From contig OZ242326.1 in the NCBI GenBank assembly GCA_965208325.1, forward strand, positions 854,725 through 918,724: 64,000 nucleotides of DNA. The letters are read 5' to 3'. A program made the translations under genes and the position numbers. Below are positions 26,974-43,496 of the stretch, one piece after another. Origin of the DNA: Candidatus Poribacteria bacterium. Lineage in GTDB: Bacteria; Poribacteria; WGA-4E; PCPOR2b. Position 1 is the first letter of the stretch. Every line of letters begins with the position of its first letter. The notes below the pieces were generated by a model. It was not told where the DNA came from. It ran no database searches and worked only from the letters and a program-made list of their open reading frames with translations.

Positions 26974-27283
26974 ATAGGTGGTGCCGGTGCCCGTTCGTTT
27001 CTTAAAGGTGACTCGCTTTATCCGGAGAATTTTAAACATGTTAACCGCCCGTAATTGAAGGTGAATTCGCCGAGGAATTTTCTCACATAAGGGTTATGAA
27101 GTCAAGCTCTTTTTCGGCGGCGGCAATCCGTTACTGTACCCATGCACGGTGATATGCTACAATAGAATGCACGTTGTATGAGGTTGTCGATACAACCCCG
27201 ATTTCGAATTGGATTCAGGCATTGATTCACAAATTGGCATAAAAGGCAATATATACATTCATTGTGCAAGGAGAACACCATAT

Positions 27284-28342
27284 ATGGCAAACCCATTAAA
27301 AGTTGGCATCATCGGCGTTGGCGGCATCGCCCGCACCCACGTACCGGGTTGGAACGCCTCGCCGCACGCCGAGTTGGTGGCTGGCTGTGATATCAGAGAC
27401 GATGTCGTCAAACACTGGGGCGAAGCAAACCAAATAAAAACACTGGCGACCAATCCGGAAGAACTCTTCAGCGATGCGGATATCGATATCATTGATGTGT
27501 GCACACCGAACATGTATCACGCGCCGCTGGCAGTTGCAGCGCTTGAATCGGGTAAACATGTCATCTGCGAAAAGCCATTGGCGCCGACGCCGCAAGACAT
27601 CTACAAAATGATCGAAGCCCGCAATCAGTCCGGAAAATTGCTCATGACGGCACAGCATTTCCGGTTTGAACCTAAATCGAAAGCCATGAAAGCCGAAATA
27701 GACAGGGGTGTGCTCGGCGACGTATACCATGCGCGCAGTTGGATGCTGCGCCGTAACGGGTTCTCACCAGGGCCGGGATTCGTCCTCAAGAAAAACAGCG
27801 GAGGGGGACCGTGCATCGACATCGGCGTTCATATTTTGGATTTAACCCTCTGGTTCATGGGCAATCCGCAGCCAGCCGCTGTGACGGGGGTAGCACGGGC
27901 TGAGCTCGCACATCGAAAGGGCGCTTTCTGCGCATGGGGCGGCGAGATTCCGGAAGCGTTCGATGTCGAAGATTTTGCGGCGGCGTTCGTGCGATTTGAG
28001 ACCGGCGCCACCCTAATCCTAGAGGTGAGTTGGCTGCTCCACCACGATATACGCGGCGAGGACATGCAGATGTGGCTTTACGGGACGGATGCCGGCGCGC
28101 ACTGGCCAAAATGCGAGTTTCTTGAGAGCAATGCTGCCACGAAGCAGCATTTCAATCGATCCTTACAACTTTTCCCGAATCTTTTGGAAGCGCATGCACA
28201 GGAGTGCGTCGAGTTTGCGCAGGCAATTGTTGACGGCGCGCCCTCACCCGTACCTGCCGAACAGTCGCTGCAGGTGATTTCCATTCTGGACGGCATCTAC
28301 AGGAGCCAAGAACAGGGCGGAGAAGTGCGAGTCAATGCGTAG
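27284..28342 (+). CDS. Gfo/Idh/MocA family oxidoreductase
   Basis: 'LKVGIIGVGGIARTHVPGW' Rossmann and 'EKPLAPTPQDIYKM'. The start is taken at 'MANPLKV'. Confidence 0.75.
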   Translation: MANPLKVGIIGVGGIARTHVPGWNASPHAELVAGCDIRDDVVKHWGEANQIKTLATNPEELFSDADIDIIDVCTPNMYHAPLAVAALESGKHVICEKPLAPTPQDIYKMIEARNQSGKLLMTAQHFRFEPKSKAMKAEIDRGVLGDVYHARSWMLRRNGFSPGPGFVLKKNSGGGPCIDIGVHILDLTLWFMGNPQPAAVTGVARAELAHRKGAFCAWGGEIPEAFDVEDFAAAFVRFETGATLILEVSWLLHHDIRGEDMQMWLYGTDAGAHWPKCEFLESNAATKQHFNRSLQLFPNLLEAHAQECVEFAQAIVDGAPSPVPAEQSLQVISILDGIYRSQEQGGEVRVNA

Positions 28343-28445
28343 TCTAGCAGGCACACTCAGTATGCCGTAGCATTATCCCGACCCGTCCATCAGCTTTCAA
28401 TGCAATATACGCAAACAACGGCACACGGAGTGTGCTTACTACTAT
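28341..28445. repeat. palindromic element, copy 1 (imperfect arms 'GCAGGCACACTCAGTATGCCGTA' / 'ACGGCACACGGAGTGTGCTTACTAC')
   Basis: Seen directly in the sequence. Same arm sequence as the 33001..33100 element. Sits right after the stop of the Gfo/Idh/MocA gene at 28342. Confidence 0.7.
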
Positions 28446-28559
28446 AGTCACTGCAACTAAAAATTACACATTACCTTTTCAATCCGATCAAAAAGAGGTG
28501 TAACCCCCCCTAACCCCCCTTTTCAGCTTACTATTGCCCACAAGTCCAGAAATTTGCAC

Positions 28560-28750
28560 GGTGCCACCTGTGGGAGGGAGATCCTTCTCCCGATTGTCGA
28601 GAATCAAGCGACCGAATAGGGAGCGCGATAGTTTTAAGTGTCTCTCCTACAGTGAGGACACTTTAGTCGGTTCATTGACAATAATCATTCCCCTCCTTAC
28701 TAAGGAGGATCAACTGACCGAATAAGGAAGGCGATAGGTTTTATAGTTCT
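28560..28750. repeat. modular intergenic repeat locus (two copies of 'TCAAsyGACCGAATArGGAGsGCGATAGkTTT' plus hairpins)
   Basis: Copies at 28604-28635 and 28710-28742. Hairpins 'GGGAGGGAGATCCTTCTCCC' and the perfect palindrome 'CCTCCTTACTAAGGAGG' at 28692-28708. A 'CACCTGTGGGAG' module and a 'CTCTCCTACAGTGAGGACA' module. Confidence 0.75.
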
Positions 28751-28878
28751 TCCTAGTTCTTATAGGTTGGGTTGAACGCTGTTTCTAGCACCCTCATTAA
28801 GATGTGGGTAATAGTAAGTCCTTTTCAGGGGGTATCTGAATGTGTGTAAATATGAATGTAAATGGCTATATTATGCGC

Positions 28879-30069
28879 TCAAACGACCTCATCCCTGCAC
28901 AACTCCGTTATCGCATCGTCATCTAAGCCTAGTATTTCCTTGAGAACTTCAGCCGTGTGCTGGCCCAGCGTGGGCGGCGGCAGACGCATCTCGGCAGGGG
29001 TCATCGACAGTTTGAACGGAGTTCCAGCGAGTTTCACGCTGCCCGCAGAGGGGTGGGGCATCTCGACAGTCATTTCCCGTGCGGCTGCCTGCGGATCGGC
29101 GAACACGGTGTCAAGTGTATTGACTGGTCCTGCGGGTACGTCAGCATCGGCGCAGAGTTGCAGCCATTCGGCAACAGTCCTCCGGCGGAACAAGTTCTCC
29201 AACATGGGTATCAATACGTCCCGGTGTGCGACGCGCTGCGGGTTGGACGCAAAACGCACATCCTTACCCAACGCACTCACACCCGCCGCTTCACAGAATC
29301 GCAGCCATTGTCCGTCGTTGCCGATGGCTAAGACTAAAAAATCGTCCGCCGCTTGAAACGCCTGATACGGAACGATGCTGGCGTGTGCGTTCCCCCACCG
29401 CAGCGGCACCTCGCCCGAACACAGATAATTGCTGCCGACGTTTGCCAACAGCGCAATCTGCGAATCGAACAAGGAAATATCAAGATGCTGTCCCTCACCG
29501 CTGCGTTCACGAGCGTACAGTGCGGCAAGTATCGCATTGCATGCGAACAGCGCAGCCGCAACATCAACAATGGCAACGCCTACCTTCATGGGCGCCCCGC
29601 CGCGCTCGCCGGTGATGGACATAAACCCGCCGCGTCCTTGAATCAGAGAATCGTATCCCGCTAACTCACGGTCAGGACCGGTGTGCCCAAAACCGCTAAT
29701 GGAGCAGTAAATTAATCGAGGATTAATATCCTTGAGTTCGGTGTACCCTAAACCGAGTTGGTCGGCGCCTCCGATTCGAAAGTTCTCGACCAACACATCG
29801 CTGTTGCGCGCTAAATCCTGCGCAATGGCGGCGCCTCGCCTGTCCTTGAGGTCGAGGGTGATGCTTTTCTTGTTGCGGTTGCAGCATAGGTAATATGCCG
29901 ACTCGCCCCCGACAAACGGCGGGCCCCATTGCCGTGTTTCGTCGCCGGCATCCGGACGCTCGACTTTGATTACCTCCGCGCCCAGATCGCCCAACATCAT
30001 GGCACAATAGGGACCGGCTAAATGCCGCGACAATTCCAGCACGCGCACGCCATCGAGCGCACCTGCCAT
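28879..30069 (-). CDS. CaiB/BaiF family (class III) CoA-transferase
   Basis: 'LDGVRVLELSRHLAGPYCAMMLGDLGAEVIKVERP', diagnostic of family III CoA-transferases. 396 aa. Its start overlaps the upstream stop as ATGA (30067-30071). Confidence 0.8.
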   Translation of the reverse strand: MAGALDGVRVLELSRHLAGPYCAMMLGDLGAEVIKVERPDAGDETRQWGPPFVGGESAYYLCCNRNKKSITLDLKDRRGAAIAQDLARNSDVLVENFRIGGADQLGLGYTELKDINPRLIYCSISGFGHTGPDRELAGYDSLIQGRGGFMSITGERGGAPMKVGVAIVDVAAALFACNAILAALYARERSGEGQHLDISLFDSQIALLANVGSNYLCSGEVPLRWGNAHASIVPYQAFQAADDFLVLAIGNDGQWLRFCEAAGVSALGKDVRFASNPQRVAHRDVLIPMLENLFRRRTVAEWLQLCADADVPAGPVNTLDTVFADPQAAAREMTVEMPHPSAGSVKLAGTPFKLSMTPAEMRLPPPTLGQHTAEVLKEILGLDDDAITELCRDEVV

Positions 30070-31283
30070 TACGTATCCTCCGCAAACGGATACGGCGGCA
30101 GTATTTGCGTTAAACGCTTGTCAGTTCGGTATCCGAGCGCATATTCTGCCTGCATCAATTGGTGAATTTCCTGCGTTCCCTCGTAGATTAACGCCCCACG
30201 GGAGTTTCGCAAGTAGCGTTCGACCGGGTACTCGTCGCTATAACCGTTGGCGCCATGGACTTGCACGGCGTCATCCGCAGCTCTGAAGGCGTTCTGACAA
30301 TTCACCCACTTCGCCAGGCTCGCCTCGCGTGTACAGCGCGCCCCTCGATTCATCATCCAGCCAATCTGATAGTATAGCAGCCGCCCGGTGTCCCTCCCCG
30401 CGACCATGCGGGCAATTTTTTGCTGAACGAGTTGGTGTTTTCCAATCGGACGCCCAAACGTCTCGCGCGCCTTAACGTAGGATGTACTCGCCTCAAGGCA
30501 CGCCTCTATCAAACCGACCGCCCCGGCGGCAACTGTGTAGCGACCGCTGTCCAATGCACTCATGGCGATCTTGAATCCTTCGCCCTCTTCACCGACACGA
30601 TTCGCTGCCGGTACGTGCACCTCTCGCAGTACGATCCCACCGGTAGCGCCGATGCGTCCCCCCAGTTTGTGTTTGATGCTAGAGGTGCTGACACCCTCGA
30701 AGCTGCGTTCCACGATAAATGCCGAAATGCCGCGGTACTTGGTGCTAGGGTCGGTGTAGGCAAAAACCAAATATTGGTCGGCGATGTCGGCGAAACCGAT
30801 CCACGTTTTCTCGCCGTCGAGAATATAACTGCCGCCCTCCCGCCGGGCGGTGGTGCGAATATTCGAGACATCGCTTCCCGCATGCGGTTCAGTCAGCGCA
30901 AACACCCCCAACTTCTCGCCGCGCGCCTGCGGCGCAAGATAATCGGCCTTTTGCGCGCCGCTTCCCCACCGAAACAACGTCAACGAGTTGAGGCCTAGAT
31001 GCACGGAAACCAACACGCGAAAAGCGCTGTCCGCACGCTCCAACTCTTCACAGACGATGCCGAGGCTTAGATAGTCGCGCCCCAATCCGCCGTGGCATCG
31101 GGGAATGCAAACGCCGAACAGCCCCTCTGCCGCCATCTTCGGCAAAATTTCCCGCGGAAATTTCTGTGCGCGGTCCCATTCGCGGACATACGGCAAAATC
31201 TCGCGTGCACAAAACTCGCGCGCCGCATTGCGGATGGCGTCGTGCTCCGATGTCAATGTGAAGTCCAAAATTTGAATCTCCAT
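30069..31283 (-). CDS. acyl-CoA dehydrogenase
   Basis: ACAD fold motifs ('GLFGVCIPRCHGG', 'FALTEPHAGSD', C-terminal 'YEGTQEIHQLMQAEYALG'). 404 aa. Translationally coupled to the CoA-transferase. Confidence 0.8.
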   Translation of the reverse strand: MEIQILDFTLTSEHDAIRNAAREFCAREILPYVREWDRAQKFPREILPKMAAEGLFGVCIPRCHGGLGRDYLSLGIVCEELERADSAFRVLVSVHLGLNSLTLFRWGSGAQKADYLAPQARGEKLGVFALTEPHAGSDVSNIRTTARREGGSYILDGEKTWIGFADIADQYLVFAYTDPSTKYRGISAFIVERSFEGVSTSSIKHKLGGRIGATGGIVLREVHVPAANRVGEEGEGFKIAMSALDSGRYTVAAGAVGLIEACLEASTSYVKARETFGRPIGKHQLVQQKIARMVAGRDTGRLLYYQIGWMMNRGARCTREASLAKWVNCQNAFRAADDAVQVHGANGYSDEYPVERYLRNSRGALIYEGTQEIHQLMQAEYALGYRTDKRLTQILPPYPFAEDT

Positions 31284-31694
31284 GCTTGGGAAGGGGTTGT
31301 CGGTATTGATTACAGTATATCAAATTCGAATTTTCTGATAAACAGAAAAAACAGACAATCCCTCTTGACAAAATCTGCAATTTTCGTATAATGAGAAACG
31401 GTCGTGTAGATTGTAGACACTTGCTAACGCCATGTTCTAGCCATTCAGCGGAGAAGAATGCGATTCGTTAAACCGAGTTTTTTCTTCAAAACTCGGTTTC
31501 TGTAATTTGATATCAATCGGTTTGGATTTCCAAGCCCTCATTGATAGAACCTGCCTATCCGCGGTAACAATACAATGTGTGAACCATCTCATTGACAAAT
31601 ACTAATTTTCGTAATTATTGCATAATCGAATTAATTTGAGCCAGAGATGTTTGATGTTCATGATTACCATTCACGGAAAGTTGCCGTAGCCGTA

Positions 31695-31850
31695 GGGGAT
31701 CAACCGAGTGAATAGCGAGGGATCAACCGACCGAATAGGGAGGGCGATAGTCTTACCTCAACACACCTCCTGTGGGAGCGTCCTCCCGGACGCGATAATC
31801 CCCGAATATTGAGGAAAGGATGCCTCTCCCACCGAGGACATTACGGCGAA
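31695..31850. repeat. modular intergenic repeat locus, second site (same family as 28560-28750)
   Basis: Full copy 'TCAACCGACCGAATAGGGAGGGCGATAGTCTT' at 31723-31754 preceded by a partial tandem copy at 31700-31720. 'CACCTCCTGTGGGAGCGTCCTCCCGGACGC' and 'CCTCTCCCACCGAGGACA' modules occur in a different order from site 1. Confidence 0.75.
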
Positions 31851-31979
31851 TATCAAAAATGTGCCGCCCTAAAAAACTAGCACCAAAGGTTTTGAAGACA
31901 TTTACAGGAATGTGGGAAGGCTGCCATTGAAATTCTTTAATCGCATGTACCCGCACATAGAGAAAAAGAGGATTAAACA

Positions 31980-32879
31980 ATGCGAGTTTTTGTTACGGGC
32001 GGCACCGGATATATCGGCAGCGCCGTTGTATCGGAACTTGTCAAGGGGTCTCACCAGGTAACCGGACTCGCCAGATCGGCGGACAAGGAGACCGAACTGG
32101 CGGATCTTGGAGTCGCACCGGTGCGAGGCGATTTGAGAGACGTTTACGGCTTCAGGGACCTCGCGGCGGAACACGACGCCATCATTCATATCGGCTTTGA
32201 ACGCAGCCCGGAAGGCTACGCCGCCGACCGCGCAGTCATGGAAGCGCTCCTCGCCGCCGCAAACGCCGCGTCCGGCGCCCGCCATGTAATCTATACCTCC
32301 GGTCTGTGGGTACTCGGCACCGTCAGCCAAGACCCCGTGGATGAAGATGCTACGACAGAACAGCCGGTTCCACTCGTCGCCTGGCGCCCGCCGCACGAAA
32401 GGCTGGTGTTGGACGCCGATTCGGAATCGGTGACTACATCAATTATCCGCCCGGGAATGGTTTATGGCGGAGACGGCGGAATCTTAGAGTCGTACTTCAT
32501 TTCGGCGGATAAGGGCGAGCCGGTTGTTCATGTTGGCGAGGGGGTTAACCGCTTCTGCTTTGTGCACCGCGAGGACCTGGCGGAGCTATACCGGCTCGTC
32601 GTAGAGAAACGGGCAGCCGGCATCTTCCACGGGATTGATGATGCATTTATCACAATTTCCGATGCGGCGCGCGCCGTTAGCCAAGCCGCAGGCAAAGGCA
32701 GCCCGGTACATAGCCAGCCGCTCGAAGACGCGCGGGATGAGATGGGATTGTTCGCCGATGCGCTCTGCACCGATCAGGCGGTGGTTGCGCGCCGTTCCCG
32801 TGAACTTGGTTGGCAGCCGCGTCATCCCCCGTTTCCCGAAAGCGCCCGCGCAGCCTATCGTGAGTGGAAAGAAAGTTAA
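31980..32879 (+). CDS. NAD-dependent epimerase/dehydratase family (atypical SDR / NmrA-like) protein
   Basis: 'MRVFVTGGTGYIGSAVVSEL' Rossmann. 299 aa. Confidence 0.65.
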   Translation: MRVFVTGGTGYIGSAVVSELVKGSHQVTGLARSADKETELADLGVAPVRGDLRDVYGFRDLAAEHDAIIHIGFERSPEGYAADRAVMEALLAAANAASGARHVIYTSGLWVLGTVSQDPVDEDATTEQPVPLVAWRPPHERLVLDADSESVTTSIIRPGMVYGGDGGILESYFISADKGEPVVHVGEGVNRFCFVHREDLAELYRLVVEKRAAGIFHGIDDAFITISDAARAVSQAAGKGSPVHSQPLEDARDEMGLFADALCTDQAVVARRSRELGWQPRHPPFPESARAAYREWKES

Positions 32880-33000
32880 ACTATTTGGGAGTTACGCACT
32901 TCAATAGTGAACAACGATCGATGTTCATTACGAAATGGAGAAAATACTGGGGCATTACCCTTGAAATTGTCGCGCCCTGTGGCGATGAATCTCCTGTAAA

Positions 33001-33100
33001 GTAGTAGGCACACTCCGTGTGCCGTAAGTTACAAATGCTGCTTAACGGCCGGATGGCGGCATCGGGACGAGGTTTACGGCACACGGAGTGTGCCTACTAC
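33001..33100. repeat. palindromic element, copy 2: perfect 27-bp inverted repeat 'GTAGTAGGCACACTCCGTGTGCCGTAA' separated by 46 bp
   Basis: 33001-33027 is the exact reverse complement of 33074-33100. Located 120 bp downstream of the epimerase gene. Confidence 0.85.
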
Positions 33101-34351: not shown

Positions 34352-37237
34352 TTGGCAATGAGGAAATCGGTCACACCCGTCCCCAATCCCCAGCAACAGA
34401 AGGCGATTCGGACAACAGAAGGGCCGCTGCTCATTATTGCTGGTCCTGGATCTGGAAAGACCTTTACGCTTGTTGAGCGTATCAATCTCTTAATTTCGCA
34501 AAAGGGAATTCCGCCGGAATCGCTCTTCGTCGCAACTTTTACTGAAAAAGCCGCGGCCGAACTGATCAGTCGAATCTCACTAAAATTGGATTCCGCCAAA
34601 ATCACCGCCAATCTGAACGAGATGTACATTGGCACCTTCCACTCCATCTGTCTTCGATTTCTTGAGGAACACCGTAGATTTACCCGCCTGGCGCGCAACT
34701 TCACCTTATTAGATCAATTCGATCAGCAGTATTTTCTTTATCAGCGCTTGTCTGACTATCAGGCGATTGAGGGAAGTGAGCATATTTTGGATAATCCAAG
34801 AGCTACATGGTGGGGTAAGGCGGAAAATCTTATGAAATGGGTGAACAAGGTGAGCGAGGAGGCGCTTGCCCCGGAAGATTTGCTTGATGCCGACGAGCCT
34901 GAAGTTCAAGCGCTTGGACGCTGTTATCAACAGTATCAGGCACATCTCGAAGCCGAAAACTGCCTTGATTTTTCCACGATTCAAGTTGAGGCGTTGCGTC
35001 TGCTCGACCAATACCCGGAGGTACTTGACGAGATTCGCACTAAGATTCAGTATTTGATGATCGATGAGTTTCAGGACACCAACACCGTTCAAGAAATCAT
35101 CCTGTTCAAACTTGCCGAACCGAACTACAATCTCTGCGTTGTAGGTGACGATGACCAAGGACTTTACCGATTTCGGGGCGCGACGATACGTAACATTCTC
35201 CAATTCCCGCAGCGGTTCCCGCCGGGAGATTGCCAGCAAGTCAAACTCACGACCAACTACCGATCGCACCCGGATGTCATCGGTTTTTACAACGATTGGA
35301 TGGATAGCCTTGATTGGTCCGAGGACGGCAAAACTTTCCGCTATGAGAAAACAATTGTTGAAAACTCGGAACGAGAATTCACGGAGGTGCCGGCCGTGCT
35401 GAAGGTCTCAGGTGAATTAGACTCTGAGAACTGGCACGAGGAAGTCCTTGCGTTCCTTCGCCACCTAAAAGGCAACGGTTCATTGACGGATTGGAATCAG
35501 GTCGCATTCCTTTTTCGATCGGTGCGGAATGAGAAAGTCGTTGCACTCGCAGGCGCGTTGGAGGAAAACGGAATTCCCGTCTATTCCCCGCGATCTAATC
35601 TGTTCTTCGACCGGGCAGAAATTCGCCTCATGATCGGCGCGTTAATTTTCCTCTTCCCCCAATTTGAAAATGTTCGGAAGTGGAATAAAGACGCTTCGCT
35701 TGATATCTGGAACTATTACGATGACGACTGTTTTCGGGATTTTGCTGACGAACTCCGCAAGCCAGACAATAAGTCTATGTTGGCGTGGTGCAGAAGGCGA
35801 GCAAAAGCGCATCTCCACCTGATAGAGTCGACAGACTATGCCTTCTCTGGGCTGTTCTACGAATTGTTGCAGTTTCCACTATTCAGTCAATACCTTGGCG
35901 AAGCTACGCAAGGCGGAGCAATAGACACCCGTCCTGCCCGAAACTTGGCAATTTTATCCCAACTCCTCAGCAAGTATGAGTATCTGCATCACATCAACGT
36001 CTTAACGCCTGATTATCTGAACACGAATCTACGCAGGTTGTTCAATCGTTATTTTCGATTCCTTAAAGAGGGTGGGATTGAAGAATTCGAGGATGCGTCT
36101 GATTATGCGCCAACAGGCTGCGTCTCCTTCATGACGATTCATCAGTCTAAAGGGTTGGAATTTCCGGTTGTATTAGTAGGCTCAATGGAAGCCAGACCTT
36201 ACAAGCAACACACGGACCTTGATGCTGTGCTCCAGCGGAATTACTATAGAAAGCCGCCGTTTGAACCATTGGAGAATACCAAAAGCTATGACTTCTGGCG
36301 ACTTTTTTACACGGCATTTTCCCGAGCACAAAATCTACTAATTCTCACCTGTCAGGAACGAAAGGGGCGGTGGCCTGCTCCATCTGGATATCTCAGCGAT
36401 TCCTACGCTCAAACCTGCGCATGGCGGGACCCCGCATTTCAATCACAAAACCTCACACTTGAAACAATCAGGGAAGTATCTCTAAAGCATGAGTATTCAT
36501 TCACGTCCCATATCACCCTATATGAGAACTGCGCGCGGCAATACAAATTCTACCGCGACCTCCAGTTTGCCCCAATTCGGCGGAACCCAATCCTCTTCGG
36601 GGTCGTGGTACATCAGACTATTGAGGACATCCACAAAGCCGTTCTACGAGGCGAAGAAAACAGTGTCACTGATGAACAAATTTCGCGCTGGTTCAACGCC
36701 AACTATACTCACCTGTCTCGTCAAGAACGCCTTTATTTAAGCGCGGGCGGCCAAAATGCCGCCTTGGAACACGTCCTGAGATATGCTCACCGTGAGCGCA
36801 GAACATGGGATCGCCTTCGCGAAACAGAGGTCAAGGTTTCCGTTGTGAAGGACACCTACTTTTTAACCGGACATGTGGACTTAATCCGCGGCGAAGACGA
36901 GTCAATGGAAATTGTGGATTTTAAGTCGGAACGTAAACCTGACCTATTTGGCGAACGCGAGACGTTAGACCGCTACCGGCGTCAACTCGAAGTCTATGCC
37001 CACATTGTAGAAGGACGCACCGGGCACAAGATTAGTAGAATGCACCTCTACTACACAGGAGAGGACAATAGTAATCCTTATGTCAGTTTTGACAAGAATC
37101 CGCGCTCAATTAATCGCACGATGGCAGCCTTTGACGATGTCGTTGAGCGTATCGAAGCAAAAAATTTCGAGATATCGGGACGTCCGGAGAAACTGTGCAA
37201 GAATTGTGACATGAAGGCATATTGTGATGCGATATAG
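34352..37237 (+). CDS. UvrD/PcrA-like SF1 helicase fused to C-terminal Cas4/AddB-like PD-(D/E)xK nuclease with Fe-S Cys cluster
   Basis: Helicase motifs 'QQQKAIRTTEGPLLIIAGPGSGKTF' (Q/I), 'VGDDDQGLYRFRGA', 'TTNYRS', 'TIHQSKGLEFPVVLV'. C-terminal nuclease with 'YENCARQYKF', 'VDLIRGEDESMEIVDFKSER', 'QLEVYAHIV' and terminal 'CKNCDMKAYCD' (four Cys). Confidence 0.7.
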   Translation: MAMRKSVTPVPNPQQQKAIRTTEGPLLIIAGPGSGKTFTLVERINLLISQKGIPPESLFVATFTEKAAAELISRISLKLDSAKITANLNEMYIGTFHSICLRFLEEHRRFTRLARNFTLLDQFDQQYFLYQRLSDYQAIEGSEHILDNPRATWWGKAENLMKWVNKVSEEALAPEDLLDADEPEVQALGRCYQQYQAHLEAENCLDFSTIQVEALRLLDQYPEVLDEIRTKIQYLMIDEFQDTNTVQEIILFKLAEPNYNLCVVGDDDQGLYRFRGATIRNILQFPQRFPPGDCQQVKLTTNYRSHPDVIGFYNDWMDSLDWSEDGKTFRYEKTIVENSEREFTEVPAVLKVSGELDSENWHEEVLAFLRHLKGNGSLTDWNQVAFLFRSVRNEKVVALAGALEENGIPVYSPRSNLFFDRAEIRLMIGALIFLFPQFENVRKWNKDASLDIWNYYDDDCFRDFADELRKPDNKSMLAWCRRRAKAHLHLIESTDYAFSGLFYELLQFPLFSQYLGEATQGGAIDTRPARNLAILSQLLSKYEYLHHINVLTPDYLNTNLRRLFNRYFRFLKEGGIEEFEDASDYAPTGCVSFMTIHQSKGLEFPVVLVGSMEARPYKQHTDLDAVLQRNYYRKPPFEPLENTKSYDFWRLFYTAFSRAQNLLILTCQERKGRWPAPSGYLSDSYAQTCAWRDPAFQSQNLTLETIREVSLKHEYSFTSHITLYENCARQYKFYRDLQFAPIRRNPILFGVVVHQTIEDIHKAVLRGEENSVTDEQISRWFNANYTHLSRQERLYLSAGGQNAALEHVLRYAHRERRTWDRLRETEVKVSVVKDTYFLTGHVDLIRGEDESMEIVDFKSERKPDLFGERETLDRYRRQLEVYAHIVEGRTGHKISRMHLYYTGEDNSNPYVSFDKNPRSINRTMAAFDDVVERIEAKNFEISGRPEKLCKNCDMKAYCDAI

Positions 37238-37277
37238 CAAGAGATTCAAATCGACGCAAGACGCAAGGAGAAGATTC

Positions 37278-39194
37278 ATGGAAACACAATCCCATCTCAA
37301 AATTTTAGAACCTATTAATTCTGTTGAATCATACGAATTTGAGCCTATTCAGGGTTACCCCATGCTCAACTGGAAAGGTAAACGCCCTTTCCGATCCACA
37401 CAATACTATCCAGCCCAACTTAAAGAGACGTATGGTGAGGAAGTAGAGGGTTGGCAAAACAAAATATACTGGGGCGATAACTTGCAGGTAATGAGCCATT
37501 TACTTAAAACCTTTCGGGGCAGGATAAACTTGATTTACATTGATCCCCCGTTTGATTCAAAGGCAGACTACAAGAAGCAAATAGAACTTAAGGGAAAGAA
37601 AGTTGAGAACGATAAAAGTGCATTTGAAGAGAAACAATACACTGACATTTGGACGAATGATGAGTATTTACAATTCATGTATGAGCGATTAATCTTGATG
37701 AAAGAATTGTTGGCAGATGATGGGACGATATATGTTCATTCTGACTGGCGAATGAATAGTTACCTTCAATTGGTTTTAAATGAGGTGTTTGGGAAGAGTA
37801 ATTTTCTTAACTTGATAACATGGCGACGGCAAATAGTCCGCGGGATGAAAAAATACGCACGATTCATGCCATTCAGTTCGGATTACATTTATCTCTATGC
37901 AAAAGACAAAAGCAAAGCGATTTGGAACAAAATCGAAAAAGTTAATGCTATCTCATTGAAAAAGGCCGAACAAAAATATAAGAAAGATGATAAAGGATTC
38001 TTCCGAACTTCCGACCGCGGGACATACTCGGACGAGAGCATCATTCAACTCTATAAGGAAGGACGAATTCATGTCACGCACGGTGGAAAATTCCAGATAA
38101 AGGAGGGCAAGGTGTCGGTATCAGCCGGCAAAATTGGCATCAAATATTACCGCGAAACAGTTGGTGATAAAGTCCTTGAAAAAACGGTTTTTGATAATCT
38201 ATGGGATGATATATCTGGATTGGGTATTACTCCCCACGAATATCTTGATTACCCAACCCAAAAACCCGAAGCACTGCTCGAACGTATAATCAAAGCCTCG
38301 TCCAATCCCACCGACATCGTCTTGGACTGCTTCATGGGCAGCGGCACGACGCAAGCGGTCGCTATGAAACTTGGCCGTCGCTTCATTGGGGCAGACATCA
38401 ACCTCGGTGCCGTGGAAACTGCGACAAAGCGTCTCCTGATTGTTGCAGCATCGCTAAAGGAAAAAACGGCACAAAGGCGAATTGAAGAAACCCTAATCCA
38501 CTTTTCGGGATTTGAAGTGTATAACGTCAACCACTATGATGTATTCCGAAATCCCGTTGAGGCGAAAGACCTGTTGATAGAGGCATTAGAGATACAACCT
38601 CTGCCAAACGGCGGTATTTTCGATGGCGAAAAGGACGGGCGCATGGTGAAAATCATGCCAATCAATCGAATTTCAACCCGAGCAGACCTCAACGAACTAA
38701 TCGCGGGATTTAACTACCAAACATTTGAAAGGCGTCAGGAAGAAAATCCAGATGCTCCGGTCGAAAAGCTATTACTGGTCTGCATGGGCCACGAACCTGG
38801 CCTCGCCGCAGCACTGCAAAACGAAGTACCTCACAAACTTGACATAGAAATAATGGATGTTTTGCGCGATAAATCCCGACTAGAGTTCAAGCGTGAATCC
38901 GAAGCGAAGATTGTTCGTAACAACGGATACCTAATCATAGAGCAATTCTACCCGATGAACCTTCTTCAAAAGTTGAGCCTGATAGAGGAAAACGTCGCTG
39001 ATTGGCGCGAACTGGTGGAATCTGTAAAGGTTGACTTCAACTACGACGGCGGGGTGATGAACCCATTAGTGGTCGATCTGGCGAAAGAACATCAACTAGT
39101 TGAGGGCACTTACCCCATTCCAGAAGACGCGGGCACAATCCGAGTTAAAATCACCGATTTGCTGTCAGAATCTTTGGAAAAGACAGTGGAATAG
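37278..39194 (+). CDS. mod: Type III restriction-modification DNA methyltransferase (Mod), beta-class N6-adenine/N4-cytosine MTase
   Basis: 'IYWGDNLQVMSHLL...INLIYIDPPF' (motif IV DPPF) N-terminal, AdoMet motif I 'DCFMGSGTTQAVAMKLGRRFIGADIN' C-terminal (beta order). Shine-Dalgarno 'AAGGAG' 9 nt upstream of the ATG at 37278. The ORF's nominal start at 37224 overlaps the helicase gene. Confidence 0.75.
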   Translation: METQSHLKILEPINSVESYEFEPIQGYPMLNWKGKRPFRSTQYYPAQLKETYGEEVEGWQNKIYWGDNLQVMSHLLKTFRGRINLIYIDPPFDSKADYKKQIELKGKKVENDKSAFEEKQYTDIWTNDEYLQFMYERLILMKELLADDGTIYVHSDWRMNSYLQLVLNEVFGKSNFLNLITWRRQIVRGMKKYARFMPFSSDYIYLYAKDKSKAIWNKIEKVNAISLKKAEQKYKKDDKGFFRTSDRGTYSDESIIQLYKEGRIHVTHGGKFQIKEGKVSVSAGKIGIKYYRETVGDKVLEKTVFDNLWDDISGLGITPHEYLDYPTQKPEALLERIIKASSNPTDIVLDCFMGSGTTQAVAMKLGRRFIGADINLGAVETATKRLLIVAASLKEKTAQRRIEETLIHFSGFEVYNVNHYDVFRNPVEAKDLLIEALEIQPLPNGGIFDGEKDGRMVKIMPINRISTRADLNELIAGFNYQTFERRQEENPDAPVEKLLLVCMGHEPGLAAALQNEVPHKLDIEIMDVLRDKSRLEFKRESEAKIVRNNGYLIIEQFYPMNLLQKLSLIEENVADWRELVESVKVDFNYDGGVMNPLVVDLAKEHQLVEGTYPIPEDAGTIRVKITDLLSESLEKTVE

Positions 39195-39212
39195 CGACTT
39201 ATAGGGGAAAAA

Positions 39213-41816
39213 ATGGCACGAATTGCGCGAACACAGATTAATCTCGATTTCGCCTTCTTCACCTACCTACGCATCTTTTATACTGAGAACCGCGGGCGAA
39301 TTCGCAATCACTTTCGAGATCTATCTAAAAAATTCCTAGATTTCAACACCCCTGAATCAGGGGCGTTTTTGCGCGAACCGCAGTTTGAGGCGTTAGAGAT
39401 GTACATTTTCCTTAAGGAATATCTAGGTAACCGACACGTTCACGAGATTTTCACTGACTGGTACACAAAACAAAACGGGTTTGAAGGGCGGTCAACTCTT
39501 GGTATCGAACAGCTTGAACTGCTTGGAGAACTCAATACGACGCAATACGAGGCTGTATTCCGCTATATTAGAAAATCTGGAAATCGAAATTATGCGAATT
39601 ATATTTTTGCGCTTCCAATGGGTACGGGCAAGACGATTCTCATGGCAACCTGTATCTTCTACGAGTTTCTGCTCGCCAATAAATTTCCGAAAGATCCAAA
39701 ATATTGTCGTAATGCCCTTGTCTTCGCACCCGATCGAACGGTGTTACAGTCTCTCAAAGAGATTCAGACCTTCGACATGACAAAAGTTATACCGCATGAA
39801 TACTTCAATTTCCTTTCACGCCACATCCAATTCCACTTCCTTGAAGAAGCCGGAACTACACTCTCTACAATGGACCGCTCGCAATTCAACATTATCATCT
39901 CCAATGCGCAGAAGATAATACTCAAAAAGCAACACACTGAGAAAAGTGCCAGTGAACGCTTGTTTAAGAGCGGAGCACCGACTTACAAACCGGGAAGCGT
40001 CTACGACCAATTTTCAGGTCTCTACAATTTTGACACGCCCGAAGATGAGAACGAATTAACAACCAATCAGCGATTTCAGAAACTGACAAGGCTTGAACAA
40101 CTCGCAATCTTTGTCGACGAGGCACATCATGCGTTCGGCAGTAAACTGGCAAGGGACATGGGGCTTCAGAAGTCAAAGACCAGTCTGCGGCTTACCATTG
40201 ATGAACTTGCGGCAAGTTTGGAGCGTGCGGGAACGCGCGTCTGCGCCTGCTACAATTTCACGGGTACACCATACGTCGGGCAACAGGTCTTACCCGAAGT
40301 AGTTTACGGGTACGGGTTAAAAGAAGCAATTGACAAAGGATTCTTGAAAAAAGTTAGGCTTCATACCTACACCAATCCTAAAGACTCGGAGTTTGTGCGA
40401 CTGACGATTAAGGATTTCTGGGACAATCATCGTGGATTACGACATGAAGGGATGTTGCCGAAACTCGCACTATTTTCATCCACAATCGACGAGTTAAAGA
40501 ACGATCTTCGCCCCGCTGTTGAATCGGCGTTAAGCGAGTTTGGTGTGCCGCTCTCTAGCATCCTTGTTAATGTGGGAGATTCAAAGCTGACATCCAACGA
40601 TGAACTCCGCGAGTTTATTAACCTTGACACCCAATCATCCGAAAAACAGTTTATCTTGTTAGTCAATAAAGGAAAAGAAGGATGGAACTGCCGATCGCTG
40701 TTTGGCGTGGCACTTTACCGGAGACCGAAATCCAAAATTTTTGTTCTACAAGCCAGTATGCGATGCTTACGGCAGATTGGCGAAGACCAGCAAACTGGAC
40801 ACATTTATCTTTCCGCAGAGAATGCTCAGATTCTTGATGACGAGTTGCAGCAAAACTTCCGCGTGTCCGTCAATGAAATTCATAACTTCGGTGTTGAAAA
40901 ATTAAATTATAAGGTACGAGTTAACAAACCGCCCGTGAACGTGACGCTCAAACGCATCAGAAAGTTGCACCAGCTGGTAGAAAAGCAATCCCAGAACGGG
41001 CTGTGTTTGGAGCTCGATCAGATAGACACAGAAAAGTATCGCTTAATACACGAAGAAAGTGAAGGGCTGGCGGCTCCTCACCCGATTCTAACGGAGGACC
41101 TATCCGAATACAAGTTAAAGCGAGATTTCAGTCAGTTGACGCTGTGTGCGGAAATTTCTCGCTACCTAAATCGATCTCCGCTGAAAATTGAGGAAATGCT
41201 GACGAATACAGAAGAAGGGATGCAAAGGATTCTGTCGAATGTCAATGAGTTTAATGAACTACTTTACGACTGGATAATTCCACGAATTTTTAAGGCATTA
41301 TATGATTTGCAGGAATTTGAAAATCACGAATCAGAAGAAATTGAATTGGTTAAGGAGCCCGAGGAGGGGTACTACACTGTTCGGGCGACGCCTAACCTTG
41401 TTTTTACAGATAACAACACTGAAGTAATACAGCACCGGCGAAAGAGTTTTCACTTGGACACCTACGCTTTTGACTCCAACCCTGAAAAGGCTTTATTTTG
41501 GTCACTGCTGCGGGCTGGAAAAGTTAAAAAAGTGTATTTCACAGGAATGCTGACGCATGGGCAATCAGATTTTTACATCCAATACATTGACCCAGAATCG
41601 CATGCAGTCAGGCGATATTATCCCGATTTCCTCATGCGGAAGGATGACGACTCATGGGTCATCGTCGAAGTAAAGGGTGACAATATGGTTGACGACCAGA
41701 TAGTTCAGGCAAAAGCTGCGGCTACCTATCAGCGAGCAAATGCAAGTCGCATGACATACAAAATCATTAAGGGCAGCGATGCTCAGGCGGGAAGATATAG
41801 TTCATTGTTGGAATAG
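39213..41816 (+). CDS. res: Type III restriction enzyme Res subunit (SF2 DEAH helicase plus C-terminal PD-(D/E)xK endonuclease)
   Basis: Walker A 'FALPMGTGKTILMA', DEAH 'IFVDEAHHAF', C-terminal nuclease 'YYPDFLMRKDDDSWVIVEVKGD'. 867 aa, immediately downstream of Mod. Confidence 0.7.
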   Translation: MARIARTQINLDFAFFTYLRIFYTENRGRIRNHFRDLSKKFLDFNTPESGAFLREPQFEALEMYIFLKEYLGNRHVHEIFTDWYTKQNGFEGRSTLGIEQLELLGELNTTQYEAVFRYIRKSGNRNYANYIFALPMGTGKTILMATCIFYEFLLANKFPKDPKYCRNALVFAPDRTVLQSLKEIQTFDMTKVIPHEYFNFLSRHIQFHFLEEAGTTLSTMDRSQFNIIISNAQKIILKKQHTEKSASERLFKSGAPTYKPGSVYDQFSGLYNFDTPEDENELTTNQRFQKLTRLEQLAIFVDEAHHAFGSKLARDMGLQKSKTSLRLTIDELAASLERAGTRVCACYNFTGTPYVGQQVLPEVVYGYGLKEAIDKGFLKKVRLHTYTNPKDSEFVRLTIKDFWDNHRGLRHEGMLPKLALFSSTIDELKNDLRPAVESALSEFGVPLSSILVNVGDSKLTSNDELREFINLDTQSSEKQFILLVNKGKEGWNCRSLFGVALYRRPKSKIFVLQASMRCLRQIGEDQQTGHIYLSAENAQILDDELQQNFRVSVNEIHNFGVEKLNYKVRVNKPPVNVTLKRIRKLHQLVEKQSQNGLCLELDQIDTEKYRLIHEESEGLAAPHPILTEDLSEYKLKRDFSQLTLCAEISRYLNRSPLKIEEMLTNTEEGMQRILSNVNEFNELLYDWIIPRIFKALYDLQEFENHESEEIELVKEPEEGYYTVRATPNLVFTDNNTEVIQHRRKSFHLDTYAFDSNPEKALFWSLLRAGKVKKVYFTGMLTHGQSDFYIQYIDPESHAVRRYYPDFLMRKDDDSWVIVEVKGDNMVDDQIVQAKAAATYQRANASRMTYKIIKGSDAQAGRYSSLLE

Positions 41817-41855
41817 GGCATAATCGCAAACATTAAGAGTTCGGGGTCGTTCTTT

Positions 41856-42698
41856 TTGGCAATGAGAAAGATCAAAACAGGACTACGCTGGCTCTGTGGG
41901 AAGGTCGGCAAACTTAGTTTTGAACACATACCCCCGGAAAAAGCATTCAACGACCAGAAAGTTTTCCATGACTGCGTTATCAACATCCTTGAAAACCAAA
42001 AGCTTAAAACATCTCAACGAGGTGTTGGGGACCATACGCTGTGTATTACCTGCAACAATAATACAGGTACAATGTATGGGTCTGCTTTTGTAGAATTTTG
42101 CAAACGTGCTGCTGACGTGCTGTCTCAGGCGTACGGTTATCCTACGCTGCATTACGAGTATAGTACCTACCCCTTGCGGGTCATTAAACAAATCGTAACG
42201 ATGTTCTTTTCGACCAATAGCCCAGAATGGCGGAAATCATGTCCTGATTTGGAGAAATTCGTATTGGATAAGCAGGATAGATACCTGCCTGAAAGATACG
42301 GCATCTTCCTCTATTACAATATTGAAGGTACGCTGCTGAAGCACACAGGCATACAACGTGTGCTTAAATTCGACCCCGACTGGATTGCTTCACCCAACCT
42401 GTCAGAATTCAGTGAAATCGTGCACCCTCCTTTCGGGTATTTGATGACAACAGACTCGGACAAACCAGATGATAGGCTGTTTGACATTTCTTGGTTCAGC
42501 AATTTCACCTTTGATGACTATCGGCGAGTGTATCTAAAAATTCCCGTGTTACCCATTTACACAATGTATGCGGGGCAATATCCGAGTCGAAAAGAAATAG
42601 ACGAAATTCGACGCAAAAATCCGGCACGAGGTCTCCAAGATTACCTTGAAGACATCGTGAGTCAGTCTGTCAACAGGAAAGGCGAACAATCCAAATAG
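41856..42698 (+). CDS. hypothetical protein with N-terminal HNH-like motif
   Basis: 'LCGKVGKLSFEHIPPEKAFND...HTLCITCNNNTG' resembles the HNH beta-beta-alpha-Me core (E-H, N, CxxC). The remaining roughly 200 aa are unassigned. Confidence 0.35.
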   Translation: MAMRKIKTGLRWLCGKVGKLSFEHIPPEKAFNDQKVFHDCVINILENQKLKTSQRGVGDHTLCITCNNNTGTMYGSAFVEFCKRAADVLSQAYGYPTLHYEYSTYPLRVIKQIVTMFFSTNSPEWRKSCPDLEKFVLDKQDRYLPERYGIFLYYNIEGTLLKHTGIQRVLKFDPDWIASPNLSEFSEIVHPPFGYLMTTDSDKPDDRLFDISWFSNFTFDDYRRVYLKIPVLPIYTMYAGQYPSRKEIDEIRRKNPARGLQDYLEDIVSQSVNRKGEQSK

Positions 42699-43049
42699 CA
42701 TTTTCTAAGCATTAATTACGAATTGCTAAGTAGAAAATATATGTATCAATTGGAGGTAATCTGTAAAATCCGTCAAATCTTGTAAACTATTGTAAACTTG
42801 AATGATGCGACAAATGCGCGAGAAAATCGCTACATACGCTTAAGCGATTGCGACCGGCGTTTGAAGCTGCGGCTGAAGGATACAGTAACCAACTTAAATT
42901 AAATAGTAAATGGATACGGTGACTCTCAACACCCGGCAACGCCATTCGATCGCTCGTTAATCCATTCATTTGGTTGTAGTTAAAGTCACTATTCCCACGC
43001 GTTCCCTTCATCTTAACGCCCGCTTTAATTTAGCAAGGGAGAATACGAT

Positions 43050-43496
43050 ATGACAAAGCGAATTTGGGTACTTCTTGGAGTTGGAATTATCGCTATTGTC
43101 TTCATATTAATTGCTGTATTTGCAGTTCGATCTTGCGGACAGCCCCCGGCCGAGACTCCGGTCCCCGACGATGATGCAACATCAGCCGCTCCTAAGCCCA
43201 CACGCGCGATAAAACCTGCGCCCGCGTATGTATCCGTTTCAATCAACGCCGTTCCGTGGGCAGAGGTTTTCATAAGGACTCCTGGAAGCGCTCGATTCGT
43301 AAAACCGGGGACTAAATACTTTAATATCAAGCCTCCTTCCAATGGAAAGGATGCCCACGTCACTCCGATTCGCGGAAAATTGAAAGTGCCGGCCGGCACA
43401 GCGATAAAGTTGGTGTATGATGGACGAGAGAAAATTTTCCCTTACGAGTCTTGGAAGACAAGGCGTTCAATCTCACACGATTTTCTGGGGCAATAA
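43050..43496 (+). CDS. hypothetical membrane-anchored protein
   Basis: N-terminal TM 'IWVLLGVGIIAIVFILIAVFAV', then a Pro/Ala-rich linker. 148 aa. Confidence 0.45.
   Translation: MTKRIWVLLGVGIIAIVFILIAVFAVRSCGQPPAETPVPDDDATSAAPKPTRAIKPAPAYVSVSINAVPWAEVFIRTPGSARFVKPGTKYFNIKPPSNGKDAHVTPIRGKLKVPAGTAIKLVYDGREKIFPYESWKTRRSISHDFLGQ

Follow-up and report, generated by a model that had tools for sequence, protein, structure and literature searches.

Two inverted-repeat loci behind genes

The window analysed here is a 64,000-nucleotide (nt) stretch of contig OZ242326.1 (positions 854,725 to 918,724 of the forward strand) from the Candidatus Poribacteria bacterium assembly GCA_965208325.1. It contains two short inverted-repeat elements, locus A and locus B, whose coordinates are collected in Table 1. 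Locus A begins 2 nt past the stop codon of the gene for a GFO/IDH/MocA oxidoreductase, which converges on a CoA-transferase gene, and locus B lies 122 nt downstream of an NAD-dependent epimerase gene and 291 nt upstream of a co-directional FAA-hydrolase gene. The initial annotation had placed both elements at gene ends, and this position broadly holds. Our analysis indicated, with a probability of roughly 0.85, that both loci are REPINs, that is, doublets of a GTAG-tagged repetitive extragenic palindromic (REP) family, and that the family was spread in trans by a REP-associated tyrosine transposase (RAYT) of the type encoded on metagenome contig L143.

Locus B consists of a perfect 27-nt inverted repeat, GTAGTAGGCACACTCCGTGTGCCGTAA, whose arms are 100% complementary and separated by 46 nt, exactly as the initial annotation had described; the chance expectation for this 27-mer in shuffles of the window was 0.00 matches. 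The claim that locus A shares the same arm holds only in part, since its left and right arms matched the 27-mer at 22 (5 mismatches, by manual count) and 24 of 27 positions, and the element is somewhat shorter than the proposed interval of 28341-28445. The spacers of the two loci had no evident similarity by eye, in agreement with the annotation. What had been overlooked is that every arm folds as a hairpin in its own right, with a 7-base-pair (bp) stem containing five G/C pairs and a 3-nt loop, GGCACAC-TCC-GTGTGCC, preceded by GTAG and two further bases. GTAG stands 2 nt ahead of the stem in three of the four window units, and the fourth, the left arm of locus A, carries CTAG. Comparison with the orthologous contig L141, which reads TGTAGCAGGCACACTCCGAGTGCCGTAG at this position, identified that arm as a unit of the GTAGCAG subtype with a mutated tag rather than an arm bearing an insertion or deletion.

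Locus B folded strongly both as RNA (-68.6 kcal/mol, z = -9.7) and as DNA (-40.2 kcal/mol, z = -8.9), and the RNA fold of locus A was weak (-31.7 kcal/mol, z = -2.4). Neither element had a T-run past its outer ends on either strand, by terminator scan or in the sequence itself, which confirms the reported lack of a T-tract; within the two elements the scan matched at only one place, an inner hairpin on the minus strand of locus A (28435-28421) with a 5-T tail that falls in the spacer. Searching the whole window against Rfam gave 0 matches at the gathering score. Locus B is flanked by TAAA and GATG, with no duplication. By analogy with other repeats of this type, the perfect arms suggest that copy B is young or has been kept homogeneous, and the mismatches suggest that copy A is decaying.

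Table 1. Features of the window around loci A and B (positions count from the first nucleotide of the window)
Feature	Position	Strand	Description
REPIN A	28344-28442		Decayed heterodimeric doublet; 45-nt spacer
Left REP unit of A	28344-28370	+	CTAGCAGGCACACTCAGTATGCCGTAG; GTAGCAG subtype; tag now CTAG, loop TCA, one stem mismatch; hairpin 28350-28366
Right REP unit of A	28416-28442	-	GTAGTA subtype; 3 mismatches to the 27-mer; hairpin 28420-28436
REPIN B	33001-33100		Intact tail-to-tail REP doublet, GTAG tags outward; can fold as one long hairpin
Left REP unit of B	33001-33027	+	GTAG 33001-33004, TA, hairpin GGCACAC-TCC-GTGTGCC 33007-33023, tail GTAA; agrees with family consensus
Spacer of REPIN B	33028-33073		46 nt; not conserved across the family
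Right REP unit of B	33074-33100	-	Hairpin 33078-33094; CTAC (minus-strand GTAG) 33097-33100
Oxidoreductase gene	27209-28342		Stop codon 28340-28342
Divergent region	31284-31979		About 560 nt of other sequence where contig L141 has REP units
Epimerase gene	31980-32879		Upstream of REPIN B
430-nt stretch	28445-28878		Variable between relatives
16-nt inverted repeats	28527-28542, 28803-28818		Bound a segment of about 290 nt
Second repeat family, core ACCGAATAGGGAGGGCGATAG	28599-28649, 28705-28755, 31696-31760		Three copies; none expected by chance
Low-GC block	34352-43400		GC 0.44-0.46; 0.50-0.57 around it

A dispersed REP family and its turnover

An exact scan for the 18-nt core GCACACTCCGTGTGCCGT was made over one genome per species, and the family counts given below are those among the matches listed. 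The core was present in at least 173 copies at no fewer than 118 loci in about 80 species-level genomes. As labelled, these comprised about 30 Pirellulales, 12 Planctomycetales, 7 Gemmatales, 13 unclassified Planctomycetota, 2 Kuenenia, 1 Tepidisphaeraceae, 12 Candidatus Poribacteria, 1 Verrucomicrobiales and 2 doubtful labels, and the Planctomycetota carriers belonged to at least four orders or classes. The description of the element as specific to this lineage was therefore not borne out, since the identical core occurs in Planctomycetota, Poribacteria and others. Several genomes held three to four separate loci each among the first 118 matches, and close relatives of the window bore copies at further sites, which in these relatives contradicts a 27-mer unique to two sites. 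In the plasmid collection the REP had a single 17-nt match, attributed to chance, and close homologs of the RAYT were absent. Contigs labelled as viral carried the core at a further 15 loci. One of them, IMGVR_UViG_3300031576_000108 (L124-L138), is 44 kb long and contains 14 REP copies, about one per 3 kb, a density far above that of the window; this contig may be host DNA or a prophage region, and no RAYT was found on it.

The consensus of the copies was (A/T-rich 3 nt)-GTAG-(C/T)A-GGCACAC-TCC-GTGTGCC-GT, with two subtypes, GTAGCAG...GTCCGC and GTAGTAG...GTAAC. Conservation extended beyond the searched core to GTAG and the A-rich three bases ahead of it, and these three bases belong to the unit on both sides. 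Among the 166 tagged perfect-stem copies at the 118 loci, the tag, which lies outside the searched core, read GTAG 162 times and GTGG four times. Variants of the stem were compensatory (GGCACAT/ATGTGCC, GGCACGC/GCGTGCC, GGCATAC/GTATGCC, GGCTCAC/GTGAGCC, GGCACTC/GAGTGCC and GGCACAG/CTGTGCC). Among 35 distinct units, 96.3% of cells were paired and four of the seven stem pairs had changes on both sides, giving a covariation score that was reached by 0 of 500 shuffles.

Neighbouring units were arranged tail to tail with GTAG outward, as at both window loci, in 64 cases, directly in 29 and head to head in 3. The two hairpins of these 64 doublets stood 3 to 121 nt apart, most often 13 nt, and their spacers were unrelated in sequence. 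Direct matches of 3 nt between the flanks of these doublets were at chance level (1 observed, 1.5 expected), indicating that no target-site duplication accompanies the element. Taken together, the GTAG-tagged hairpin, the dispersed multi-copy family and the lack of such duplications agree with the REP-type element that the initial annotation had offered as one possibility. A CRISPR reading of the direct arrays was rejected, with a period of only 36-48 nt and no cas-like family recurring beside the copies.

The positions of the copies relative to genes were taken from a codon-usage gene model and are approximate; a cruder first model over-called copies inside open reading frames (ORFs), with 40 against 10. 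Among 109 classifiable clusters, 61 were located between co-directional genes, 21 in convergent and 17 in divergent regions, and 10 inside ORFs, so that 99 lay outside. Half of the clusters inside ORFs were within 33 nt of the stop codon. Of the 61 co-directional clusters, 46 lay closer to the stop codon on their upstream side (p = 9e-5; median distance 29 nt), and numerous upstream genes terminated in the TAG of GTAG or the TAA of TAAAGTAG. With its usual flanks, TAA-A-GTAG-TA-hairpin-GTAA, the unit offers stop codons in all three forward frames (compare window 28340-28350 and L143 1218-1222), and two RAYT genes are among those that stop at the TAG of GTAG. The family thus has two unusual traits: the same 25-nt unit recurs in about 80 listed species across phyla, and the unit often supplies the stop codon of the upstream gene. 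A search for a recurrent neighbour gene family found only common Planctomycete families beside the copies. REP arrays were also seen to be mistranslated into the recurrent peptides TAHGVCLL, GTRSVPAT and SRHTPCA (L020 3523-3807; L048 1312-1656; P0296 C-terminus), and such spurious peptides occur in called ORFs and public protein sets, producing false hypothetical proteins in these phyla.

The window could be compared with relatives at the same sites. Its acyl-CoA dehydrogenase shares 96% identity with one from a sponge-metagenome contig and about 76% with proteins of Poribacteria chromosomes, which makes the window Poribacteria-like, and identity of this enzyme was used to recover the syntenic contigs L141 (96%), L139 (95%) and L140 (85%). 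At the site of locus A, L141 has the same doublet as the window in a less decayed state, L139 has a compact REP cluster that fills a much shorter intergenic region, and L140 has no REP. At the site of locus B, L139 contains one reverse unit that has the same TACTAC end and a different hairpin, L140 again has no REP, and contig L141 does not cover the site. In the divergent region ahead of the epimerase gene, L141 carries three direct REP units and L139 resembles the window. REP content in L141 and L139 thus differed from the window at three sites within 5 kb, and since the relatives are 95-96% identical in the dehydrogenase, the change took place on a time scale of a few percent protein divergence. 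This different hairpin of L139 (8136-8160), orthologous to the right arm of B, is perfect and unrelated with the same tag, GTAGTA-GCGCAAT-TT-ATTGCGC, and could be another REP family at the same site or a chance similarity.

Transposase genes bracketed by the repeat

No RAYT was detected in the window by Pfam on 28 ORFs, by an HUH...NP regular expression, by tblastn with E. coli RayT and six literature seeds, or by three profile hidden Markov models. The only tblastn match (27858-28058, minus strand, E = 2e-4) fell in an 84-amino-acid antisense ORF (27855-28109) inside the oxidoreductase gene, with 35% identity to the N-terminus of E. coli RayT over 68 amino acids; the ORF is arginine-rich and lacks HUH, and the match was dismissed as chance. 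Likewise, the 118 genome loci listed and the 15 viral loci (133 REP-bearing loci) contained no RAYT, and no relative was found in the viral contigs.

The supplement of Di Nocera et al. 2013 (PMC3733652) supplied known RAYT sequences of the Planctomycetes-Verrucomicrobia-Chlamydiae (PVC) group. Homologs of Oter_2468 gave only 26 matches, of which the two named ones are Opitutus terrae and Rariglobus hedericola, and were uninformative. RB11751-type genes form a second Planctomycete RAYT family (L120 2800-3720; L122 2910-3650), with 863 matches at about 60% identity across orders. They have no precomputed Pfam match and are bracketed by REPINs with a GTAGC head, a GCCA or GCAA loop and a lineage-variable hairpin. 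This family resembles the present system in its phylum, in the GTAGC head of its REP and in the tight bracketing of the gene by REPINs, but it is a separate RAYT clade whose hairpin, for example GTAG-CCGAAGTC-GCCA-GACTTCGG, varies by lineage. Being bracketed by a different REP, it was rejected as the partner, and a metagenome scan for the REP 195-255 nt ahead of an MPDH-x-H motif, the RB11751-type geometry, gave no case.

A second metagenome scan, for a P-[DENK]-H-x-H motif 176-236 nt from the REP, returned two contigs. L142 was a chance match to the relaxed motif. The other, L143 (the same locus as L144), encodes a 247-amino-acid Y1 transposase with the motifs MPNHVH, WQEESFDH and YIAENP. It matched NCBIfam REP_Tyr_transpos at E = 3.9e-16, below the curated cut-off, and Pfam Y1_Tnp at E = 3.6e-4, also below cut-off; its best solved relative was E. 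coli TnpA-REP (PDB 4ER8), and it was 33% identical to a Pseudomonas RAYT across the catalytic core. Five family units surround this gene, and the rest of L144 (3.7 kb) has none. Upstream are two head-to-head units, which end 10 nt ahead of the ATG, and downstream is a tail-to-tail doublet whose GTAG gives the stop codon of the gene. The fifth, an exact GGCACAC-TCC-GTGTGCC unit, lies in frame inside the RAYT gene itself (L143 669-745, equal to L144 4087-4163), so that some 30 extra residues (...SRHTPCAAAAAK...) separate the catalytic core from the N-terminal region; homologs lack this insert, and most align as two matched stretches.

With the L143 protein as query, the full library yielded 7225 representatives at E <= 1e-3, of which 415 reached E <= 1e-30; typical lengths were 215-235 amino acids. 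Two of these homologs, on contigs L148 and L149, contain REP-encoded peptides. In L148 (3001-3800) the RAYT is bracketed by two exact-stem REPINs and has its stop codon inside GTAG, and in L149 a REP cluster lies directly at the RAYT C-terminus. The link to an IS200/IS605-type RAYT that the initial annotation had envisaged was thus supported, with RAYT genes bracketed by the same REP in three metagenome contigs. Three further homologs with 50-56% identity were flanked by REPs of the same design, with GT(A/G)G, 1-2 nt, a 7-bp stem and a TCC or CTCCG loop, in which the stems differ (CCCTCGC, CCCGCGG and CCGCGAC). Such a co-evolving REP-RAYT pattern was described by Nunvar et al. 2010 (PMC2817692).

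Origin of the elements and neighbouring features

Most likely the family is non-autonomous, and a RAYT, an HUH/Y1 enzyme related to the TnpA of IS200/IS605, would spread and maintain its copies in trans. If the enzyme works as E. coli TnpA-REP and IS608 do, its substrate would be single-stranded DNA on which it recognises the folded hairpin together with GTAG as a guide, and this DNA would be cut and rejoined without target-site duplication. A RAYT that acts in trans need not lie near the copies. The elements probably also have a secondary role in the host, as mRNA 3'-end stabilisers, attenuators or translation-coupled regulators, as judged from E. coli REPs; such a role at the mRNA 3' end is plausible because the elements sit just past stop codons and fold strongly.

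Several results weigh against spread by an L143-type RAYT. No RAYT was found in the 64-kb window or in about 1.1 Mb of REP-bearing loci by tblastn and three profile models, and no Poribacteria genome, the source of the window included, was demonstrated to have an RAYT of the L143 type. The link between REP and RAYT rests on three metagenome contigs, and in one of them, L148, the RAYT gene is a pseudogene: its reading frame is shifted, HVD stands in place of HUH, and the REP upstream has overwritten the start codon. The 25-nt unit is near-invariant across phyla, unlike the lineage-specific REPs usually reported, and the 64-kb window holds only two doublets. No clean empty site was found for A or B, because the flanks of L139 and L140 are too diverged to define one, and the differences between relatives may reflect insertion, deletion or conversion.

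The explanation nearest to a REPIN family spread in trans is that the window copies are relics, once spread by an RAYT and now immobile here, kept by drift or by use in the host. It fits the lack of an RAYT in the window, the decay of locus A and the pseudogene on L148; yet the arms of locus B agree at 27 of 27 positions, and the different REP content at three sites within 5 kb among 95-96% relatives implies recent turnover, so that we regard it as unlikely. Still more improbable is the view that the loci are immobile, locally evolved terminators or mRNA 3'-end stabilising hairpins which share their sequence through a conserved RNA-binding or termination factor. The location of the clusters just past stop codons (46 of 61 co-directional cases, median 29 nt), the very stable fold and the near-invariant sequence across phyla would suit such hairpins. 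They do not explain the missing U-tract, the symmetric doublets that read the same on both strands, the 17 of 109 clusters in divergent promoter regions and those within ORFs, the tandem arrays and clusters of copies, the variable presence between relatives whose acyl-CoA dehydrogenases are 95-96% identical, the same sequence around RAYT genes, or the absence of an Rfam match. Termination may be a secondary use of these elements.

The initial annotation had also mentioned protein-binding palindromes, which would make the elements operator-like sites for a dimeric DNA-binding protein, either of a regulon or of a nucleoid-organising kind. A 7-3-7 inverted repeat suits the format of a dimeric binding site, and E. 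coli REPs bind gyrase and IHF. However, the sites lie behind genes after stop codons and not in promoters, the stem changes are compensatory rather than conservative in each half-site, the asymmetric GTAG tag is conserved and the spacing between doublet units is variable, which leaves little room for this explanation. The least credible one is that of classical miniature inverted-repeat transposable elements (MITEs), deleted forms of a DDE-type insertion sequence whose terminal inverted repeats would be the 27-bp arms, another reading raised by the annotation. A length of about 100 bp, inverted repeats at the ends of a non-coding spacer and multiple copies are what a MITE would have, but target-site duplications are missing, spacers of 3-121 nt that are unrelated to each other are unexpected if all copies stem from one MITE, the REP often occurs as a single unit or in direct arrays, every arm is a self-folding GTAG-tagged hairpin, and no DDE transposase recurs beside the copies.

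As REPINs, the loci belong to a known kind of element, with GTAG-tagged REPs, dimers of them and REPtrons on record from many phyla, the PVC group among them, and a REP family with this sequence was not found described: GGCACAC-TCC-GTGTGCC was absent from the searchable text and supplements of PMC3733652 and PMC2817692 and was not found elsewhere in the literature, figures lying outside the search. The closest known systems are the single and dimeric REPs with a GTAG tag treated by Di Nocera et al. 2013 (PMC3733652), among them PVC families in Rhodopirellula baltica and Opitutus terrae, together with the REPs that form short hairpins in Stenotrophomonas (Nunvar et al. 2010, PMC2817692). They share with the present family a GT(A/G)G head 0-2 nt before a GC-rich stem of 6-9 bp with a 2-5 nt loop, tail-to-tail dimers with variable spacers of 20-100 nt, compensatory stem changes, and copies that mostly lie behind coding regions, where the neighbouring genes are co-directional or convergent, and occasionally inside genes. 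In contrast to the sequence reported here, found in about 80 listed species of several phyla, most families described so far are confined to one species or genus.

Few non-coding repeats of bacteria are as abundant as REPs and REPINs, and to our knowledge nearly all mechanistic and evolutionary work on REPs has concerned Gammaproteobacteria. The REPIN-RAYT systems of Pseudomonas and Enterobacteria, reportedly treated by Bertels and Rainey in 2011, and the REPtron of E. coli (TnpA-REP, 4ER8) are alike in that the inverted doublet is the repeated unit, without target-site duplication, and that a single HUH/Y1 gene with the RAYT motifs HUH, WQ and Y-x-x-x-NP is bracketed by the same REPs. The predicted transposase of the present family differs in being longer (about 215-247 amino acids), in an N-terminal NLPHW...YFITFRT region, in MPNHVH in place of MPDH or LPEH, and in the in-frame REP of one copy.

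For the window itself, two copies of a selfish or domesticated repeat are an ordinary finding. The wider interest lies in a well-defined candidate REP-RAYT pair in Planctomycetota and the sponge-symbiont phylum Poribacteria, whose unusually broad distribution could serve to test vertical inheritance against spread between phyla. It is a tentative and somewhat doubtful idea that one REP type with its own RAYT clade persisted nearly unchanged, or moved horizontally, over at least two or three phyla (Planctomycetota, Poribacteria and possibly Verrucomicrobiota) while sister RAYT lineages freely changed their stems, and that the unit may also be shaped for docking onto gene ends. If true, such persistence or transfer would challenge the view of REPIN-RAYT systems as lineage-specific, vertically inherited residents. 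In practice, the REP marks the 3' ends of genes, breaks assemblies in lineages represented only by metagenome-assembled genomes, and is translated spuriously by annotators.

Two other features of the window were observed near the loci (Table 1). A second small repeat family has three copies, two of which lie inside the segment bounded by the 16-nt inverted repeats. The 430-nt stretch is present in L141 and absent from L139 and L140, and therefore may be a separate MITE-like insertion. The low-GC block encodes a UvrD-type helicase fused to a PD-(D/E)XK nuclease, an N6/N4 DNA methylase, and a ResIII helicase with an endonuclease end of TnsA type. In L139 a trypsin-like peptidase gene directly follows the FAA-hydrolase gene, and from this junction the block looks like a restriction or defence island of about 9 kb inserted beside locus B.

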